Shown here: piece by piece, positions 18,578-36,545 of the stretch
Layout of the letters: the number at the start of each line of letters is the position of its first letter
How positions within the stretch are numbered: the stretch's first letter is position 1
Origin: Candidatus Iainarchaeum sp.
GTDB lineage: Archaea > Iainarchaeota > Iainarchaeia > Iainarchaeales > VGJJ01
Assembly (NCBI GenBank): GCA_030688545.1
Contig: JAUYHT010000008.1
Span: forward strand, 84,608-148,607
Direction: 5' to 3'
Length of the DNA: 64,000 nucleotides
Notes under the pieces: generated by a model
What the model was told of the DNA's origin: nothing
The model's database searches: none
The model's input: the letters and a program-made list of their open reading frames with translations, nothing else
Program-made: the position numbers and the translations under genes

Positions 18578-18652
18578 GGCCCCGTAGCTTAGTCTGGATA
18601 GAGTGTCGGGCTTCGGACCCGAAGGTCGGGGGTTCAAATCCCTCCGGGGTCG
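18578..18652 (+). tRNA. tRNA-Arg (anticodon TCG)
   Basis: Folded by hand: acceptor GGCCCCG/CGGGGTC, D-arm GCTT..GAGT, anticodon stem TCGGG/CCCGA with loop CTTCGGA, 5-nt variable loop, T-arm GGGGG-TTCAAAT-CCCTC, discriminator G; no encoded CCA. Confidence 0.85.
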
Positions 18653-18717
18653 CTAAATCGTAAAGTCAACGTGCGCTAAAAGTCTTTTTAGGGAGCAACC
18701 GCACGCAGATGATATGA

Positions 18718-20097
18718 ATGCCCCCAAAACCAACCGACAATAGCATACACGGATACCACGAAAAATATCACAGAGTCCTCTATCAACTCTTTCCCGACAA
18801 ATTCCCAAGACCTATTCCAAAGAGAGAAGGCGTATCCAAACAGATAGAACCCTTTCAGATCAATTTGATCAACAAGAAAGTTCTATATGATCTATACTTG
18901 TTTCAAGAAGCATCCGACCAAACAGGGGTTGCTCGACGATGGACACTCTTACGGCTCCTATCCAAAATCAGTCTCCTGCTAGAAGAGACTGACGGGTTTT
19001 CAGGGGACTTACCTGAAAGGACATTCCAAAACATGCTCTCGCATGAAAAAGGAAAAGAAATTGTCCTGCAACTCGCCAACAAAGTACGAAGACAAACACA
19101 ATGGAACCGAACAACCGAAAACTTTCATCTTCGTGCACTCAAACAGCTCCTTCGACACATGAATGGAGGCGATTCCACTCCACACTGCATCTCATGGCTT
19201 AAGTTCAAACGAAAAAAGAATGATTCGGGAGAAGATCCAAGCAAGGCACCCAAATTGATTAAACGAGAAGACATTATCACCGAACCAGAAATGGCAAAAC
19301 TCTATGAGAATGCTTCGCACACCATGATTAAATGTGCACTCGCCTGCTTATGGGAAGGATTACGTGCCTCCGAATTATTGAATTTGAGAAAAAAGAGCGT
19401 TACCTTCGAAGAAAATACGGTCAACCTTTCAGTCCAAGGAAAGACGGGCTCTCGAATCGTAAAATCAGCGACAGGTGCACGATACATTCGTGATTGGTTA
19501 AGCCAACATCCAGATCCTTCCCCCGATTCGTGGCTCTTTGTGATCGTTTCAAACAAAAATAAGGGTCAACGTTACGGATATTTTCCATTGGGAAAAGAAA
19601 TTCACAACACGCTTCGTCGAGCTGGCATCATCAAGCGCGGAAATTTGCACGTGTTCAGGCATTCACGTGTCGTTGACATGCTTCTCAAAGGATATTCCCC
19701 CGCTATTATCCAAAAAGTGATGGGATGGTCAAGCTTAGATATGCTCCAAACCTATGGCCATCTTGTCGATGTGGACGCTCACAATGAAGTTTTACGAATT
19801 GAATTAGGAGGAAAACCAAGAGAAGCAAAGCCTTCCATTTTATCCGCCAGAGTTTGCCTCATTTGCTCAAAAGAAAACGATTTGAGTGCAGATAGCTGCG
19901 TGAGATGTTCCAATGCTCTAACCGACAAGGGCCTTGTCGAAAAGAACCGAGAATACCACGAGCTAAAAGACAAAGTTCAGGAACTCCAAGAAAGCATGAG
20001 TCTTCTAACTGCTTGGATGAAACGATTTGGCAAAAGTGAGCCATCTCCAAGAGAAGCCAAGGAATTTCACGACGAATGGATAAAAACTATTGAATAA
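18718..20097 (+). CDS. int: tyrosine recombinase / integrase (intact, tRNA-adjacent) with C-terminal CxxC...CxxC zinc ribbon
   Basis: Catalytic-domain motifs FRHSRV (HxxR) and LQTYGHL (Tyr); located 65 nt downstream of the tRNA-Arg 3' end. Confidence 0.85.
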   Translation: MPPKPTDNSIHGYHEKYHRVLYQLFPDKFPRPIPKREGVSKQIEPFQINLINKKVLYDLYLFQEASDQTGVARRWTLLRLLSKISLLLEETDGFSGDLPERTFQNMLSHEKGKEIVLQLANKVRRQTQWNRTTENFHLRALKQLLRHMNGGDSTPHCISWLKFKRKKNDSGEDPSKAPKLIKREDIITEPEMAKLYENASHTMIKCALACLWEGLRASELLNLRKKSVTFEENTVNLSVQGKTGSRIVKSATGARYIRDWLSQHPDPSPDSWLFVIVSNKNKGQRYGYFPLGKEIHNTLRRAGIIKRGNLHVFRHSRVVDMLLKGYSPAIIQKVMGWSSLDMLQTYGHLVDVDAHNEVLRIELGGKPREAKPSILSARVCLICSKENDLSADSCVRCSNALTDKGLVEKNREYHELKDKVQELQESMSLLTAWMKRFGKSEPSPREAKEFHDEWIKTIE

Positions 20098-27179: not shown

Positions 27180-27316
27180 ATCCACATCCTGTTTGTACGT
27201 TTTGTAATCAAGAAAAACCTCCATTCATCGGACTCGGATTCGAAATTTTCTGCCCGAAACATGCTGAAGATGTTGGAAAAGCACTTTTAGAATTCTCTAA
27301 GAAGGCGAATCCATGA
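27176..27316 (+). CDS. small zinc-ribbon-like protein (46 aa; C..C...C..H)
   Basis: Manually translated MNPHPVCTFCNQEKPPFIGLGFEIFCPKHAEDVGKALLEFSKKANP; overlaps the flanking genes by ATGA at both ends. Confidence 0.4.
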   Translation: MNPHPVCTFCNQEKPPFIGLGFEIFCPKHAEDVGKALLEFSKKANP

Positions 27317-28929
27317 ATAGAAAAGAAAAGTCTTTGCGCATTCGCGGAGAATGGACTTGCAAACAATGCAATGAAAAGTTTTATGAAACGACCCAACCAA
27401 CAGTTTGTAAATGTAGACGCGGAGATTTTTATTTTTCAGGATCGCGCGAAGAAGAAGTCGTCAAAATAACGGTGGAAGGAGTTCACTACGAGACTATTTG
27501 CGACGAAAACAATAATGTCTCCTTTGCATTTCTAACAGAGAGTGGATCGCCCAACATTACTGCATTTGTTGATGATGAGGACAAAAATATACGATTTGTT
27601 CCAATTTTTAAGAAAAAAATAATGAAAAAAGATGCAACAGTAGTGATTTTCCCTGAAATACCAGTCGAATATGGAAGCGACTCCGAACTAGTCCATGAAA
27701 TCAAGAGCTTTATCCACCGATATTTGGATATTTCATCTGAACATGAGATGTTCGCGACGCAATATATTTTGCTTTCGTGGGTATACGAAGCGCTAACCAC
27801 TATCCCTTATTTATCGGCCCGAGGAGACTTTTCGACAGGGAAAAGTCGATATCTAGATACCATTGGAGATCTATGTTACTTACCTATTCATGCGAATGGA
27901 GCAACAACCGATAGTCCAATCTTTCGTTTGATAGGAACTTTTGGAGGAACTTTGGTCGCAGAAGAAATTGACAAAGAAAAAAGCGACACAACCCAAATGC
28001 TAACAAAAATAATCAATCTCGGCTACGAAAAGAAAAATTCCATCCTCCGCTCAGACAAAGAAGATCCAAATGAAATTGAGTCATTTAATGTTTTTGGACC
28101 AAAAGTTTTCTCAAGGCGATTTGAATTTCAAGACAAAGCGACTGAGAGTCGATGCATTACAGAATTAATGTGCGACACAACAAGAGAGGATATTCCAATC
28201 CAACTCCCACAAAAGTTCTTTGAAGAACAAAAAGTTCTACGAAATAAATTATTGATGTTTCGATTACGAAATTTACAAAAAGTTGACCCAAATGCGATTG
28301 AAAAAATTCGCTTACCCAAACAACTAGACTCTCGAATAAGACAAGGGCTCGCAAGCTTTGCCATCTTGTTTCATAATAATGAAGAAATCTTCACACAATT
28401 TTTAGACTTCGCCAAAAAACACCAACTAAAAATTAAAGAAGAGTTATCCACGAGCATCGAAGGACAAATAGCCCAATTTCTTTTCGACTACAAAGAAGCA
28501 CCAAAAGAACAGCAGGAAAAAATTCAACCCCAACTAATCGCTAAATGCTTAAGTGAAAAATCAAACAAACCATTAACCCCTAATTTTATCGGTGTTCGAC
28601 TAAAGAGTTTGGGAGTAAAGACGGTTCAAGGACATGAAGAAGAAGGCGGAAAACGTAAAACCATTCGCCACATCGTTTGGGATGAACCACTTTTTGAACG
28701 AATATTTCTGAAATACTTGCCGGAATATTGGATTGAAAAGAATAAGGATTATTTTGATACTGAGGCCCAGAGTCTCGTGCCTGCTGTGCCAAACGTGCCA
28801 GTCGTGCCAAGCTCTATCCACCTGGCACAAGCGGCACAAGTGGCGCAACCAGCACAACGTTCACCCATTACCCATGAAACAGACCCTGAACCCAATTCAG
28901 AGGAGATTGTTCCTCGGGAGCTGATTTGA
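27313..28929 (+). CDS. zinc-ribbon plus P-loop NTPase protein; putative replication-associated (SF3-helicase-like) protein of the element
   Basis: N-terminal CKQC...CKC; Walker A GDFSTGKS; Walker-B-like TLVAEEID; C-terminal low-complexity VPAVPNVPVVP. Family assignment is inference. Confidence 0.45.
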   Translation: MNRKEKSLRIRGEWTCKQCNEKFYETTQPTVCKCRRGDFYFSGSREEEVVKITVEGVHYETICDENNNVSFAFLTESGSPNITAFVDDEDKNIRFVPIFKKKIMKKDATVVIFPEIPVEYGSDSELVHEIKSFIHRYLDISSEHEMFATQYILLSWVYEALTTIPYLSARGDFSTGKSRYLDTIGDLCYLPIHANGATTDSPIFRLIGTFGGTLVAEEIDKEKSDTTQMLTKIINLGYEKKNSILRSDKEDPNEIESFNVFGPKVFSRRFEFQDKATESRCITELMCDTTREDIPIQLPQKFFEEQKVLRNKLLMFRLRNLQKVDPNAIEKIRLPKQLDSRIRQGLASFAILFHNNEEIFTQFLDFAKKHQLKIKEELSTSIEGQIAQFLFDYKEAPKEQQEKIQPQLIAKCLSEKSNKPLTPNFIGVRLKSLGVKTVQGHEEEGGKRKTIRHIVWDEPLFERIFLKYLPEYWIEKNKDYFDTEAQSLVPAVPNVPVVPSSIHLAQAAQVAQPAQRSPITHETDPEPNSEEIVPRELI

Positions 28930-31647: not shown

Positions 31648-32376
31648 TTACTCCTTTGATACCCCGTCTTCACAAACCATTGTAAAATCTTCTGTGACAC
31701 TGAGTTCCATTTTTCTAACGTTTTTCCTCAATCGATTGATAACTGCAGGTTCTCCCTTTTCTTTAATATTTTCTTTCAATTGCCAATGTGTGAAGTTGGC
31801 AACAATATCCGCTATTCGAATAAGCGGATAATCCCAATCACCATCTTGCAAATCGCAAGACCCTAACCAATTTTCTGCATGCTCTCGTACTTTTTGCTTT
31901 GATGTTTCCCAACCATATCCTTTCAAGTCTTTGTCCCATCGCATGACGGTTTCACCTTTGAATCCCTGGATTTTTAGAACCTCAACCACTAACCATTCAT
32001 GTTTAGCATAGATATCATTCATTGTGGTATATGCTGATGTTCCATCGTCTTTGAAAGTGATTCGCCAAAAGGGAATCCTGTCATAGTTTTTCTTATCAAT
32101 TTTTCCACGAAAAATTTCTTTGTCAACATACAGAATAAAGAATTGAAAATCAGTCTTGGCAAGCCGATCCACAATTTCTTCCCATGAGCTATGTAAATTT
32201 ACTCCTTTTTTTCCTGGCCAGCTTGTTTCAAGCCAATCACAAATTTTTTCAGCGGCTTTGAAATCCCGGGTTGTGATCGTGACAAGAGCGAGATATCGAT
32301 TAGAGTAATTATCATATTCGATCTCACGATTTCCCGAGGCATCAAAACCAGCATAAATTTCCTTCAAAGAGTCCAT
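31648..32376 (-). CDS. DUF3800-like protein
   Basis: N-terminal GFDASGN and C-terminal LIRIADIVANF resemble the DUF3800 terminal motifs (D.SG ... LQ.AD..A). Confidence 0.45.
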   Translation of the reverse strand: MDSLKEIYAGFDASGNREIEYDNYSNRYLALVTITTRDFKAAEKICDWLETSWPGKKGVNLHSSWEEIVDRLAKTDFQFFILYVDKEIFRGKIDKKNYDRIPFWRITFKDDGTSAYTTMNDIYAKHEWLVVEVLKIQGFKGETVMRWDKDLKGYGWETSKQKVREHAENWLGSCDLQDGDWDYPLIRIADIVANFTHWQLKENIKEKGEPAVINRLRKNVRKMELSVTEDFTMVCEDGVSKE

Positions 32377-32445
32377 AATTAGGTCTTTTCCAAATTAAGG
32401 TTAAAAAATGAATCAAACCACCCGTGCTAATCATGCTAATGAGAT

Positions 32446-32952
32446 GTGAATACCATGATTGATCCAGCCGTCCCCAATGAGACACGCGAGCAAAACCGAA
32501 TTGCAATTGTGATTGGTGTTTTTGCCATCTTGTTTGTTTTGTATCCTCACGTTAACCAATCTACTGATGAAATCAAACTTCTTTTTTACCTCACGGCCTT
32601 AGTAGCTATGTTTTACGGTTTGTATCTCTTTTTCATTGCCCTTGCGTATACCCCTGAAAGCGTTGGTCGAATGCATTCAAAATATTTTAACAAATTCAAA
32701 GAACTGGCATATTTCAATTATTTCATCGGCTCGTATGCAGCGTTTCTATTTATGGCCGTAATTGTTGTTTCGCTTATTTTTGGCGGAGTCGCAAAGGCAA
32801 TTTTGGGTTTTGAAATCCCTCTAATAATTCAACAAATTCTTCTTATACTTTTGATTGCTGTTGAAGCGATTAAAATTTTTGGAGTGAATACAGAGGAAAA
32901 AACTGAAGAGCCGATTTGGTCTAGAAGAAGGCGGTACCATGAGCAAAAATAG
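32446..32952 (+). CDS. 4-TM membrane protein
   Basis: Hydrophobic helices; overlaps the next gene by 14 nt (operon). Confidence 0.5.
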   Translation: MNTMIDPAVPNETREQNRIAIVIGVFAILFVLYPHVNQSTDEIKLLFYLTALVAMFYGLYLFFIALAYTPESVGRMHSKYFNKFKELAYFNYFIGSYAAFLFMAVIVVSLIFGGVAKAILGFEIPLIIQQILLILLIAVEAIKIFGVNTEEKTEEPIWSRRRRYHEQK

Positions 32953-34129
32953 TGCCGACTTTGTTAAGGCAAAGAAACTCTACTATGTTGAAAAATGGGC
33001 CGTTACTGAAGTTAACATAAAATTTGAGAATGTTGATGGAAACCAAAGTATTTCTGCTACGATGATTTTTGAAAAGGGCGGGAAAACTGAAACGATTGTA
33101 TCAGGTGAACCAGATTTTGTTGACATGGCATTTAATTTCAAAACATTATATCGAGACGGTGAAACTAAGATTATAGATTTATCATCTACTCCAATTAAGA
33201 ATGTCGCTAATCTTTACAAGAATGTCGAGTTTTTCAAAGACCTTTCCAAAGATAAGGTTAGAGAACTTATTGGAGAAATACAAAGTGGTAAATTTTTATT
33301 TCCTTCTGGATTTAACTTGCGTTCGACGATATTAGATGTCTTAGCTAAGAGATTTGATAATGAACATGTAAAATTCCTGCTCGCAAACTACAATGCATCT
33401 TTAGCGTTGCAACTAGCTGGGATGCCGTTATGGTATTCATCTTACCAGAAAATGAAGAATGCTGCAAATGACAAAGGGAGATTCGAAAATTTTGAGAGAA
33501 TATTTAGCAGAGTTTTTAGGGAGACACTTGGTGAAATGCCTGTTATAAAGGCGTTTTTAGCGAAGGAAACAAAATACAAAGCCGATAGAAATTTATTGTT
33601 AAAAAATCTTGGAACCGAATTTTCGCGCCATAAAGAACGGTGGGATACTTACTACAAAACTACCGGCGGACAGATGGATGGAAATGCTGCAGTATTGCAT
33701 TTTCTTGATGATTACGCAAATTTGTTTGAGATTATCAAACCTTCTCTTCAAGATATGGTCTCTATCGTGAAGGAGAAAAACAATGAAAATAATATCTCTT
33801 TAGAAAGTGATAATCAAATAGCAGCGTATCTCAAACAAAAGGGATTTTCTGATTTAGTTGACCCGATTGACCCAATACTGAGGAATGGCAGGAGTCATTA
33901 CGCGCTTGAGCAGATAGAAAAAGGGAAGCTTCATATTTATAATACAAAATTCAAAGATAGAAAGCTGCTTAAAATTTATGATATACAAGATGTCATTGAT
34001 AAGTACATGGAATTTTGTGACTTTGCTCGCGCGTTAGTAATTACTGATGTCCTTAACGACGAACTTCTTTTGCTAAAGGCCCTTGATTCGCCCGATTTTA
34101 AATTCTTTGTCATTGAAAATAAGACTTAG
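32939..34129 (+). CDS. hypothetical protein (396 aa)
   Basis: Coherent AT-rich ORF; no recognised motif. Confidence 0.5.
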   Translation: MSKNSADFVKAKKLYYVEKWAVTEVNIKFENVDGNQSISATMIFEKGGKTETIVSGEPDFVDMAFNFKTLYRDGETKIIDLSSTPIKNVANLYKNVEFFKDLSKDKVRELIGEIQSGKFLFPSGFNLRSTILDVLAKRFDNEHVKFLLANYNASLALQLAGMPLWYSSYQKMKNAANDKGRFENFERIFSRVFRETLGEMPVIKAFLAKETKYKADRNLLLKNLGTEFSRHKERWDTYYKTTGGQMDGNAAVLHFLDDYANLFEIIKPSLQDMVSIVKEKNNENNISLESDNQIAAYLKQKGFSDLVDPIDPILRNGRSHYALEQIEKGKLHIYNTKFKDRKLLKIYDIQDVIDKYMEFCDFARALVITDVLNDELLLLKALDSPDFKFFVIENKT

Positions 34130-34872
34130 TTTATTGCTGTAACAATTTGTTCAACTTTTTTGATATTTTCCAAGAGTGTTTTAGTTTTATTATTCTCGAA
34201 TTCTTCAAGCGAATAAATAATCTCACTATTATTAAGGTAGTTATAGTATTCCGCAAAGGATCGCGCTAGAATTTTGATATTAAATTCTAAAACTTTTCTA
34301 GTAACTTTTGGATCATAGTTTCGAGTTGTCTTTTTCAGATTTGCTAAACCTTTTCTGTGATAGGTTTGGAAAGGCAACATCAGCTTTTCCGTATTACTAT
34401 GTGCTATTTTTGAAAAACTGCTGTACAAATTTAGGCGCAAGTGTCTTTCCATTTGACTATAATTTGGTTTGTGACCATATTCTATCATCTCTTGGATAAG
34501 GTCAAAATTATTTGTATCTAAGCAATATACGACTCGCAGCATTCTTTCGTAATTTGCTCTCAATATTGTGACGGATTCGCCCAAACTTCCTTTTAATGCT
34601 AAATCTTCTATTATTCGGGATGCGTCTAAATTTTCCACAAGAAAATATTCATAAATTACGGATGATTTCCAACTAATTTTTCCATTTTTGTAAAAAAGGC
34701 CTTGTATTGATTCAAAAAGAAGTTGTCGAACTTTTTCACATTTTTCTAATAGCTTCTTCAATTCTTTTTCATTATTACTATGGATACTTTTTTCTTCATT
34801 TTTAGATTTTTCTTCGAATGTTTCTTCGCTAGTCGCAAAGGAATGAATAATTTTTTGTAATGTTGATTTCAT
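34126..34872 (-). CDS. hypothetical protein (248 aa)
   Basis: Coherent ORF; overlaps the previous gene by 4 nt (convergent). Confidence 0.45.
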   Translation of the reverse strand: MKSTLQKIIHSFATSEETFEEKSKNEEKSIHSNNEKELKKLLEKCEKVRQLLFESIQGLFYKNGKISWKSSVIYEYFLVENLDASRIIEDLALKGSLGESVTILRANYERMLRVVYCLDTNNFDLIQEMIEYGHKPNYSQMERHLRLNLYSSFSKIAHSNTEKLMLPFQTYHRKGLANLKKTTRNYDPKVTRKVLEFNIKILARSFAEYYNYLNNSEIIYSLEEFENNKTKTLLENIKKVEQIVTAIN

Positions 34873-34968
34873 CCGTTGATTCCTTCATGGTTACAAATTC
34901 TTAGATTATTATCTAGACAACGAACATAATGAGAAAGGCCGTAAAAAGCATTTGGTCTAATACTCGCT

Positions 34969-35817
34969 ATGGATAAAAAAACCGTACTTGAGCTTGAGGA
35001 TGCCGTAAAGACCCTGAAAGTTTGGATGAATCAATCTGCGGCTATGGTGACTCCAGAAATAAGAGATGCCGCTCTAGAATTATTTCAGTTAGGTAAATGC
35101 GATCTGGCAGTATCAAAACTTGCTTTTGATGGTGGTCACTATCCACAAGCCCTATCACTGTTACAACAGTCAGTAGAAAAACTGGGAAAAAGTGGGTTTT
35201 TAGTGACCGGTCAGGAGAAGCCTGAAAAGCTGGCCACTCATTATTTTTATGAGCCGGTAAGTAAAAAAATATTGGATACCAACGCGACCGCATTTGACTA
35301 TTTTACTGAAGTTTCTAAAATTGACCTGCCATTTAGTTCTGATTTTTCCGAAATCAGAAGAAATGAAGTGAAACTAAGAGAGATGTCCAAAGAAAAAATC
35401 AATGAATTTTTTAATTCTTTTGATGAAGGTGTGGCGCAAGTAATGGATGATGGTTTTATCGCTACAGAATTGAATAGACAGTTTGGCTTTTATGAGGGAA
35501 AAATTGATGTTCATCATCTCAATGTCGCACGTAAAAGTGCTAAAGAACAAACTCCACGCGTTAGAAATATGTTGCTAAGTGTTCTAAACTGGGCAAAACT
35601 AACAAGCTTGGTCGTCTTACTTACATCGCATTATCAGTCCTCCAGATACCCCTATGACAATAAGGGTGCGTCCTACTCTGATGATTATCACATAAAGTAT
35701 GTTCAGAATCTTGGGGTTATTCAAGCATATCCATTAGTGTATATTCAAATTCAGAATCTATTCACGTTTTTTGGAGATAGTTATGGATTAGAACTGAAAC
35801 AAGTCACGGATGATTAA
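34969..35817 (+). CDS. hypothetical protein; HEPN-like N-terminal helical segment
   Basis: AALELFQLGKCDLAVSKLAFDGGHYPQALSLLQQSVEKLGKS resembles the HEPN N-terminal helix pair; the Rx4-6H motif is not secure. Confidence 0.4.
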   Translation: MDKKTVLELEDAVKTLKVWMNQSAAMVTPEIRDAALELFQLGKCDLAVSKLAFDGGHYPQALSLLQQSVEKLGKSGFLVTGQEKPEKLATHYFYEPVSKKILDTNATAFDYFTEVSKIDLPFSSDFSEIRRNEVKLREMSKEKINEFFNSFDEGVAQVMDDGFIATELNRQFGFYEGKIDVHHLNVARKSAKEQTPRVRNMLLSVLNWAKLTSLVVLLTSHYQSSRYPYDNKGASYSDDYHIKYVQNLGVIQAYPLVYIQIQNLFTFFGDSYGLELKQVTDD

Positions 35818-35825
35818 GAATTATG

Positions 35826-36101
35826 TCAGGGTTTCAACCACGTCACAATTACAATTAAGAATGTGGCAATTGTCATCAAGATTGTTGCGATTGCCATCCA
35901 TTTTTGCATCTTTGTTGATGCCCTCATTTCATTGATTAGTTCCCGGCCGCTTCGCCGTTCCATTTCAAACTTTACCATCGTTAAATAATTTTTGTTGATG
36001 GTGTGGGATGTAATTAGTCTCAAATCTTCATCAGATAGATCGCTGACCATTCCATTATCCAAAGAACGGTATAACTGATCCAAGTGTTCAGCCTTATTCA
36101 T
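35826..36101 (-). CDS. small protein with C-terminal TM helix
   Basis: Start codon is 1 nt after the AbrB-like gene stop. Confidence 0.35.
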   Translation of the reverse strand: MNKAEHLDQLYRSLDNGMVSDLSDEDLRLITSHTINKNYLTMVKFEMERRSGRELINEMRASTKMQKWMAIATILMTIATFLIVIVTWLKP

Positions 36102-36102
36102 G

Positions 36103-36279
36103 TCAGTTCTCCATTTTTGGTAGTTCACGTATCAGGAGTGTATTCCTTCCTTGTCGTTCCCACAGTAGCTTTGTGCCTTTTTCCCATAGCATCAAGTGCA
36201 TGAGTTCGACGGGTATGGTGGCATGGTAGCGGAATGAGCCGTCTTTGTTGGCGCTTTTCTGGATTTTGGAAGTTGCCAT
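36103..36279 (-). CDS. AbrB/SpoVT/MazE-like swapped-hairpin DNA-binding protein (58 aa)
   Basis: MATSKIQKSANKDGSFRYHATIPVELMHLMLWEKGTKLLWERQ fits the SpoVT_AbrB fold pattern; internal start of track ORF 36103..36408. Confidence 0.45.
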   Translation of the reverse strand: MATSKIQKSANKDGSFRYHATIPVELMHLMLWEKGTKLLWERQGRNTLLIRELPKMEN

Positions 36280-36545
36280 AGGGAAAACATTACCATTATA
36301 TGGATTGCTTCCTATAAGGTTTGTTACCTCTAAAAGGCTAAAAAAAGAGCATCTTGATTTTACGAATAAGCGTCCTCCGGGGCCGTTTAATTTTTTGTAA
36401 GGTAGCAAACAGGGTAGCCTCTTTTCTTTTTTGGAGATGGAATGGCATATGTCGGTGGAATCAGACCGATTTTATCACTACGAACTTTTTTACGAACTAC
36501 TGAAAGGCCGAATCTGGCCCGAAAAATTTTCTCGCAAATTTTGCT

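Follow-up and report, generated by a model that had tools for sequence, protein, structure and literature searches.

What are five adjacent genes doing in the lowest-GC part of an archaeal genome fragment, and do they act together? The genes, here termed A to E, lie at 31648-35817 of a 64-kb stretch of DNA (the window) from a metagenome-assembled genome (MAG) of Candidatus Diapherotrites, one of the DPANN archaea, in which the products of A, C and D are hypothetical proteins (Q8P05_06090, Q8P05_06100 and Q8P05_06105). An earlier note, made from the window's letters alone, had proposed a candidate for an undescribed defence or addiction module, and had pointed to a membrane protein (B) with a large soluble partner (C) as a common effector layout in anti-virus systems. 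Our analyses place the strongest signal in C itself (32939-34129, + strand, 396 amino acids, aa). The open reading frame (ORF) taken for the soluble partner is real, but the note had missed its own HEPN domain with an Rx4H motif, and C is a member of a new archaeal family of predicted HEPN ribonucleases (RNases) that Pfam, NCBIfam and PADLOC do not cover.

The explanation that we favour, with moderate confidence, is that the region carries accessory cargo of an acquired low-GC block, in the form of independent nucleic-acid-targeting modules, and that C serves as an RNase of the toxin or abortive infection (Abi) type. Nothing here is categorically new. We regard C as representing a new family of a known kind, the HEPN RNase toxins or Abi proteins carried on mobile elements.

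Gene C and its family

A word-index search with C returned only C itself and one homologue, and its family emerged only through an exhaustive profile search, which yielded 75 representatives at E <= 1e-3, of which 45 reached E <= 1e-10. Almost all members are full length (365-427 aa), and their sequences are 16-37% identical. An alignment of 61 members served both for conservation counts and for structure prediction with AlphaFold2. The model of C built from these 61 sequences has a predicted local distance difference test (pLDDT) score of 94.7 and a predicted template modelling (pTM) score of 0.89, compared with a pLDDT of 53 for a model from two sequences, which was unusable.

In the 61-sequence model, C is composed of an N-terminal alpha-beta domain (residues ~1-80), a helical domain (residues ~89-212) and a C-terminal helical bundle (residues ~217-394, encoded at 33587-34120, + strand). 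Helix 1 of the bundle spans residues 217-242 and is followed by helix 2 (residues 248-280), which carries an invariant glutamate (E264). An insert (residues 281-311) separates helix 2 from a short helix 3 that has the Rx4H motif at its end, and a three-stranded beta insert (residues 321-348) is located between the motif and helix 4 (residues 349-383). The motif itself, R315-N-G-R-S-H320 (33881-33898, + strand), is the predicted RNase active site.

HEPN domains are defined by an Rx4-6H motif that ends helix 3, by a polar residue (N, D or H) after the arginine, and by an acidic residue in helix 2 that is typically part of an Ex3[KR] motif (PMC3710099). The position of the motif in C, the polar residue that follows its arginine, the acidic residue of helix 2 and the insert between helices 2 and 3 all fit this definition (PMC3710099). 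Conservation is close to complete at each of the key positions: R315 is found in 60 of the 61 aligned members, histidine or asparagine at position 316 in 59, and H320 and E264 in every one. Lysine or arginine resides at +3 from E264 in 36 of the 61, which corresponds to Ex2[KR] rather than Ex3[KR]. As judged from the model, the C-terminal domain is a HEPN fold with a complete and essentially invariant set of predicted active-site residues.

Established protein families provide little overlap with C, which has no Pfam match at E <= 1. In Pfam searches with the 61 members, only HEPN families recur, and all of these matches fall below threshold (pEK499_p136 in two members, best E 0.0013; AbiU2 in one, E 0.002), while no PADLOC family recurs. 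Foldseek found no significant counterpart to the whole of C in PDB or BFVD, PDB searches with C by sequence and by profile gave nothing relevant, and the N-terminal alpha-beta and helical domains likewise had no significant match. An alpha-beta-beta-beta-alpha unit at the N-terminus produced repeated weak, non-significant Foldseek matches to double-stranded RNA-binding domains, which we regard as a hint only.

Among known systems, C resembles the single-protein abortive-infection proteins AbiD/AbiF, AbiJ, AbiU2 and the pEK499_p136-like proteins (PMC3710099), which also combine a C-terminal HEPN domain carrying an Rx4H motif with variable N-terminal domains and are encoded by stand-alone genes on mobile elements or in defence islands. 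The C family differs from this group by scoring below every Pfam threshold, by its occurrence so far only in archaea, by its extra beta insert and by its unmatched N-terminal domains. The difference from HEPN-MNT toxins (SO_3166, PDB 5yep; 7ae2; 8xdj; HI0074, PDB 1jog) is greater, in that these are single-domain proteins of about 130 aa with a nucleotidyltransferase antitoxin, whereas C has 396 aa and two extra domains, shares 7-10% sequence identity with them and has no MNT gene nearby. A nucleotidyltransferase domain is absent from all ORFs between 18.7 and 39.6 kb of the window, and neither C nor E therefore qualifies as the HEPN component of such a pair.

The genomic settings of the family were drawn from a context survey of 13 further independent loci that carry a C homologue; a separate locus scan with a six-sequence C alignment gave two genome loci and two metagenome loci. 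The family appears to be confined to archaea, where it occurs in DPANN MAGs and on a haloarchaeal plasmid and provirus, and four scans of viral contigs turned up relatives of none of A, C, D and E. Overall, its distribution is patchy, largely on mobile elements and often next to genes of biological conflict.

Several of these elements can be recognized by their other genes. One locus (L009) is an element with Rep_1 and an integrase, and another (L016/L017, 56% GC) is a pleolipovirus-like provirus with an integrase. Member P0020 resides within this provirus (L016 1-11254, and L017) together with Viral_env_HRPV, DUF8125/8126, DUF7845 and integrase genes, so that haloarchaeal viruses, too, are carriers of the family. 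A megaplasmid of Halobacterium salinarum (L022) has an integrase 2.7 kb downstream of its family member. This member, WP_338756372.1, is encoded on plasmid pKBTZ03_355 of Halobacterium salinarum KBTZ03 (L022 6857-8113; NZ_CP146626.1 225127-226383), is annotated as hypothetical, and retains the sequence LRHGDSH.

Two MCM-helicase contigs of ~15.4 kb (L019/L020), which are of near-identical length and recur in several JGI samples, probably represent the entire genome of a small archaeal plasmid or virus. In both, a 47-aa MazE_antitoxin gene (26.1 bits; gathering score 24.7) stops 2 nucleotides (nt) before the C-family gene. The apparent operon at L019 215-2740 continues beyond the MazE-like gene and the HEPN gene (394 aa) with a winged helix-turn-helix protein carrying two transmembrane (TM) helices (182 aa) and a four-TM protein (221 aa), the genes for which overlap. 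The remaining settings include a plasmid-like 7-kb contig (L001), a Nanoarchaeota MAG (L005) and a locus in which a small ORF overlaps the start of the C-family gene (L015).

Two further loci are distinguished by what lies upstream. A Kiwa-like pair is located directly upstream of member P0005 (L002, with copies of the same locus in L003, L004, L006 and L008). In this pair (L002 3891-5479), the gene for a membrane protein of 197 aa overlaps that for a protein of 334 aa, which matches Pfam KwaB weakly; the host is a 30%-GC archaeal MAG labelled Methanosarcinales in one record. An Aenigmarchaeota contig (L011) carries an apparent transposase remnant upstream of its C homologue P0010. This remnant resembles the C-terminal part of a transposase or integrase core, as judged by eye from the translation (L011 1-196 and 1921-2271). 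Across the survey, the genes upstream of C homologues are diverse, and include four-TM and seven-TM proteins, a MazE-like gene, a histone-fold-like ORF, a transposase and a divergent RNase_T gene.

The neighbouring genes

The layout given in the earlier note was borne out by ORF calling, including the overlap between B and C and the convergent 248-aa ORF. The stop codon region of B lies over the start of C (14-nt overlap), C and D converge with a 4-nt overlap, and strand orientation alternates across the five genes. The placement of the cluster in the lowest-GC part of the island was likewise correct: GC content is 0.32-0.42 over 26-40 kb and reaches the window's minimum within the cluster (0.345 at 33-34 kb and 0.317 at 34-35 kb), compared with ~0.53 in the flanks. 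Because stop codons are common in DNA of 32-37% GC, which is the range of the A-E cluster, five ORFs of 168-396 codons are unlikely to have arisen by chance, and homologues outside the window exist for A and C. A tRNA-Arg(TCG) gene (18578-18653, + strand) and, directly after it, a tyrosine integrase gene (18718-20097, + strand) mark the left edge of the low-GC block, which is probably a horizontally acquired element integrated at tRNA-Arg. None of the five genes has a housekeeping assignment, in agreement with the earlier note, and no PADLOC model matches any of their products.

Gene A (31648-32376, - strand, 242 aa) had been called DUF3800-like on the strength of two peptides, GFDASGN and LIRIADIVANF. 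Both are present, the first as residues 10-16 (32329-32349, - strand) and the second with its RIAD portion as residues 187-190 (31807-31818, - strand). A itself has no match in Pfam (E <= 10), NCBIfam or PHROGs, and PDB sequence and profile searches with it gave nothing relevant. The sole homologue besides itself that a word-index search found among 5.8 billion clusters is P0004 (249 aa, 56% identity). P0004 scores 21.3 bits against DUF3800 (PF12686; gathering score 21) over profile positions 5-144 of 149, and the membership of A in DUF3800 is thus transitive, since only its homologue passes the threshold.

DUF3800 proteins are described as adopting an RNase H-like fold, with a DE motif towards the N-terminus and a QxxD motif towards the C-terminus (PMC7736814), and they have been linked to mobile elements and to defence, for example in type VII retrons and at Cas12a2 and Cas12a3 loci (PMC13594972, PMC7736814, PMC10910872). 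A is of fitting length and has the corresponding layout, with D-x-S-G near the N-terminus and x-x-A-D near the C-terminus. In both A and P0004, however, D-A (D12-A13 in A) replaces DE, and R-I-A-D (R187 to D190 in A) replaces QxxD, such that only the two aspartates are kept. A also differs from known DUF3800 systems in that it has no match of its own to the family's hidden Markov model and no neighbouring retron reverse transcriptase, Cas12 or TPR protein, nor a DUF3800-associated RNA motif. A search of 31.3-36.5 kb for Rfam motifs found none at E <= 1, DUF3800-associated motifs included. A is probably a divergent, borderline relative of DUF3800, possibly with an altered active site.

Gene B (32446-32952, + strand, 168 aa) was correctly described as encoding a four-TM membrane protein: its product has four 19-residue hydrophobic segments with Kyte-Doolittle means of at least 2.2, which correspond to four predicted TM helices. 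No significant match was found in Pfam, NCBIfam or PHROGs, and the best match in PADLOC-DB 2.0 is to the CARF_TM model at an E value of only 0.055. Neither the truncated gene upstream of the C homologue in L001 nor any other TM neighbour could be accepted as a homologue of B, in that the scores did not exceed those of shuffled controls or did not stand in composition-adjusted BLAST. As far as its sequence indicates, B is an orphan four-TM protein.

Gene D (34126-34872, - strand, 248 aa) finds only itself among the 5.8 billion clusters of the word-index search. Its similarity to DUF5677 (PF18928; 17.9 bits, E 0.0035) is below the gathering score of 27.1, and there is no sequence match in PDB. 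One preprint assayed a DUF5677 ORF for anti-phage activity, and this ORF was not among its positives, so that no support for a role of D comes from that source. A single match to D in the viral-contig scans is a short lysine- and glutamate-rich stretch and was judged spurious. A relationship of D to C was rejected (hhalign probability < 1%), and a comparison of D with E gave nothing.

Gene E (34969-35817, + strand, 282 aa) had been suspected of being HEPN-like, and residues 38-95 of its product indeed match the Pfam HEPN family PF05168 with 24.3 bits (gathering score 22). This N-terminal part of the domain is encoded at 35080-35253 (+ strand), with H91 at 35239-35241, and is separated by an insert of ~100 aa (about 35266-35583, + strand) from the sequence R226-Y-P (35644-35652, + strand). 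E aligns to PDB 1wol in two collinear pieces, residues 42-98 and residues 216-236, the latter including SRYP. When residues ~105-196 are removed in silico, the PF05168 score rises to 28.5 bits over profile positions 4-95 of 117. The two-piece alignment and the higher score after removal of the insert both argue for a HEPN domain that is split by ~100 aa, and the junction between helices 2 and 3 is the classic HEPN insertion point (PMC3710099). No relationship between E and C was detected (hhalign probability < 1%).

The possible active site of E would be of a different type from that predicted for C. In AF0298 and AbiV, an upstream histidine and the motif arginine form an alternative site in place of Rx4-6H (PMC3710099), and in the sequence alignment H91 (in ATHYF) and R226 (in SRYP) of E pair with GHSISH and SRYP of 1wol. 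E resembles AF0298 (PDB 2hsb), ST 1wol and AbiV in passing the PF05168 threshold and, at the level of sequence, in carrying H91 and R226-Y-P instead of Rx4-6H, and it produces weak matches to AbiV. It differs from them by its insert of ~100 aa between helices 2 and 3, for which no family match was found, by its length of 282 aa compared with about 120-130 aa in typical members, and by the absence of a nearby MNT partner.

None of these four genes accompanies C homologues at the other loci of the survey. When the products of A, B, D and E, along with ten more proteins of the island, were compared by tblastn with every retrieved locus, no match was obtained, and homologues of A, B, D and E were thus found in none of the 13 other independent loci with a C homologue. 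Because strands alternate and C homologues are never accompanied by A, B, D or E, the genes look like independent single-gene cargo, and a single multi-gene system is not supported. The proposal of an undescribed defence module consequently survives in part only: the domains and the integrase-bearing low-GC island speak for it, whereas one conserved module of the five genes, or of the membrane protein and its 396-aa neighbour, is not supported. The claim of a multi-gene system is best tempered to that of a mix of independent cargo genes.

Possible roles of the cluster

On the basis of the fold, the gene structure, the motif conservation and the genomic contexts described above, we infer that C could be an active, dimeric and toxic RNase with a role in defence or addiction. 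Other single-HEPN proteins work as dimers, and C would act in the same manner as a metal-independent RNase. Its N-terminal alpha-beta and helical domains could hold the RNase inactive or confer target or sensor specificity. Infection, or the loss of a labile partner, might then free C to cut cellular or invader RNA, such that growth stops and the outcome is either abortive infection or addiction to the element. B might be a lineage-specific partner of C, serving as membrane tether or inhibitor, rather than a component used family-wide. As a DUF3800-type, RNase H-like protein, A would represent further stand-alone nuclease-like cargo, as would E, a HEPN protein of the AF0298/AbiV type with a large insert. 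An enrichment of compact defence systems made up of a single gene has been reported for DPANN archaea (PMC12988326).

A number of observations weigh against this explanation. Every C-family member scores below threshold in Pfam, NCBIfam and PADLOC, PHROGs has no match for C, and neither experiment nor sequence places C in any described HEPN, Abi or toxin-antitoxin (TA) family. E lacks an Rx4-6H motif, A is possibly non-catalytic because the glutamate of DE and the glutamine of QxxD are missing, and B and D are orphans that offer no clue to function. Some family members have housekeeping genes on their flanks (L013). Furthermore, a search for an att repeat of the tRNA-Arg 3' end found none, which leaves the borders of the island, including the right one, undefined and makes it possible that the island is composite.

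The same evidence can be arranged differently. If members of the C family were type II-like TA toxins with exchangeable upstream antitoxins, they would serve to stabilize their elements rather than to counter viruses, and in the window B or another neighbour would supply the antidote. This proposal, which overlaps with the RNase-cargo explanation, gains from the MazE/AbrB-type gene placed just ahead of a C homologue on the plasmid- or virus-like contig, from the small overlapping ORF at the start of the C-family gene in L015, and from the presence of the family on plasmids, proviruses and islands. HEPN proteins are also established TA toxins, as in the HEPN-MNT systems (PDB 5yep, 7ae2, 8xdj; PMC3710099). 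However, most loci lack a small soluble upstream gene, including the window, where the four-TM protein B occupies this position and is unlike known antitoxins, and C, with 396 aa and two extra domains, is far above the typical size of a TA toxin and resembles single-protein Abi architectures instead. Defence and addiction roles can, moreover, coexist. We give the TA proposal some, but limited, credence. Alternatively, B and C could constitute a two-component membrane-coupled effector, in which C, on sensing or cleaving RNA, would signal to B, or B would restrain C, with membrane damage and RNA cleavage as the combined result. The overlap of the two genes agrees with this arrangement, as does the presence of unrelated polytopic membrane genes next to C homologues and on the same strand (seven TM helices and a 26-nt gap in L021; L019; six TM helices in L010) and of a truncated gene with a terminal TM helix 17 nt upstream of the homologue in L001. 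At least two TM helices are predicted in 7 of 24 immediate neighbours compared with 22 of 155 background ORFs (one-sided p = 0.044, by a crude test). This enrichment is marginal, however, given that ORF calling was crude and that DPANN genomes are rich in small membrane proteins. The TM genes also differ among loci in position and topology, many loci (L009, L011, L015, L016 and L022) have no membrane neighbour, and no homologue of B was detected at any other locus, the pairwise tests being negative as well. The B-C pair put forward by the earlier note is therefore not a conserved module, and we judge such an effector to be unlikely. It would parallel Cas13b-Csx28 and other pairs of a HEPN protein and a membrane protein, in that the HEPN protein C adjoins the small polytopic membrane protein B and is probably co-translated with it. 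The B-C pair differs in that it has no CRISPR context and its membrane partner is not family-wide, and B shows no detectable similarity to any defence-associated membrane protein.

An explanation that dispenses with conflict altogether would make C a non-catalytic, nucleotide- or RNA-binding HEPN protein involved in replication or regulation of the element, and the other genes unrelated hypotheticals. Binding-only HEPN domains do exist (PMC3710099), and the lack of matches to defence models and the housekeeping context of L013 would be accounted for. The near-perfect retention of the arginine, the polar residue that follows it, the histidine and the helix-2 glutamate at 16-37% identity is nevertheless the signature of catalytic HEPN domains, which non-catalytic ones lose (PMC3710099), and the patchy distribution of the family is tied to mobile elements; we consider a role of this kind very improbable. 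A bolder alternative is that the family comprises archaea-specific, single-protein immune sensor-effectors. The N-terminal domain would recognize viral or plasmid RNA and free the HEPN RNase, and in some lineages, including that of the window, the protein would be coupled to membrane proteins of unrelated families that serve as another effector arm. This idea is speculative and, in our estimate, doubtful. If it were true, it would constitute a new archaeal abortive-infection system that is exchanged among the mobile elements of DPANN archaea and haloarchaea.

The immunity of archaea, and of DPANN archaea especially, is poorly charted, as is the defence repertoire of haloarchaea (PMC12988326), and the C family provides a concrete candidate toxin or Abi family of ~400-aa proteins. 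Because Halobacterium salinarum, which can be cultivated, carries one of its members on a plasmid, the prediction is genetically testable.

Other genes of the low-GC block

The low-GC block (17000-40500) also contains an ABC transporter at 21.3-24.9 kb. Housekeeping-like genes are found at 36.5-40.3 kb and encode a cytidine deaminase, a GDSL hydrolase, CutA, a SnoaL-like protein and a metallo-beta-lactamase.

A 538-aa ORF (27313-28929, + strand) has a cysteine-rich, zinc-ribbon-like motif at its N-terminus and is without match in Pfam, NCBIfam and PHROGs. It is followed by overlapping ORFs of 93 aa and 185 aa, and the three may represent a replication module of the element. Downstream of E, two small ORFs on the - strand overlap each other (101 aa, 36103-36408; 100 aa, 35826-36128). 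Neither has a family match, the 100-aa product ends in a C-terminal TM helix, and the pair could be another two-gene module.

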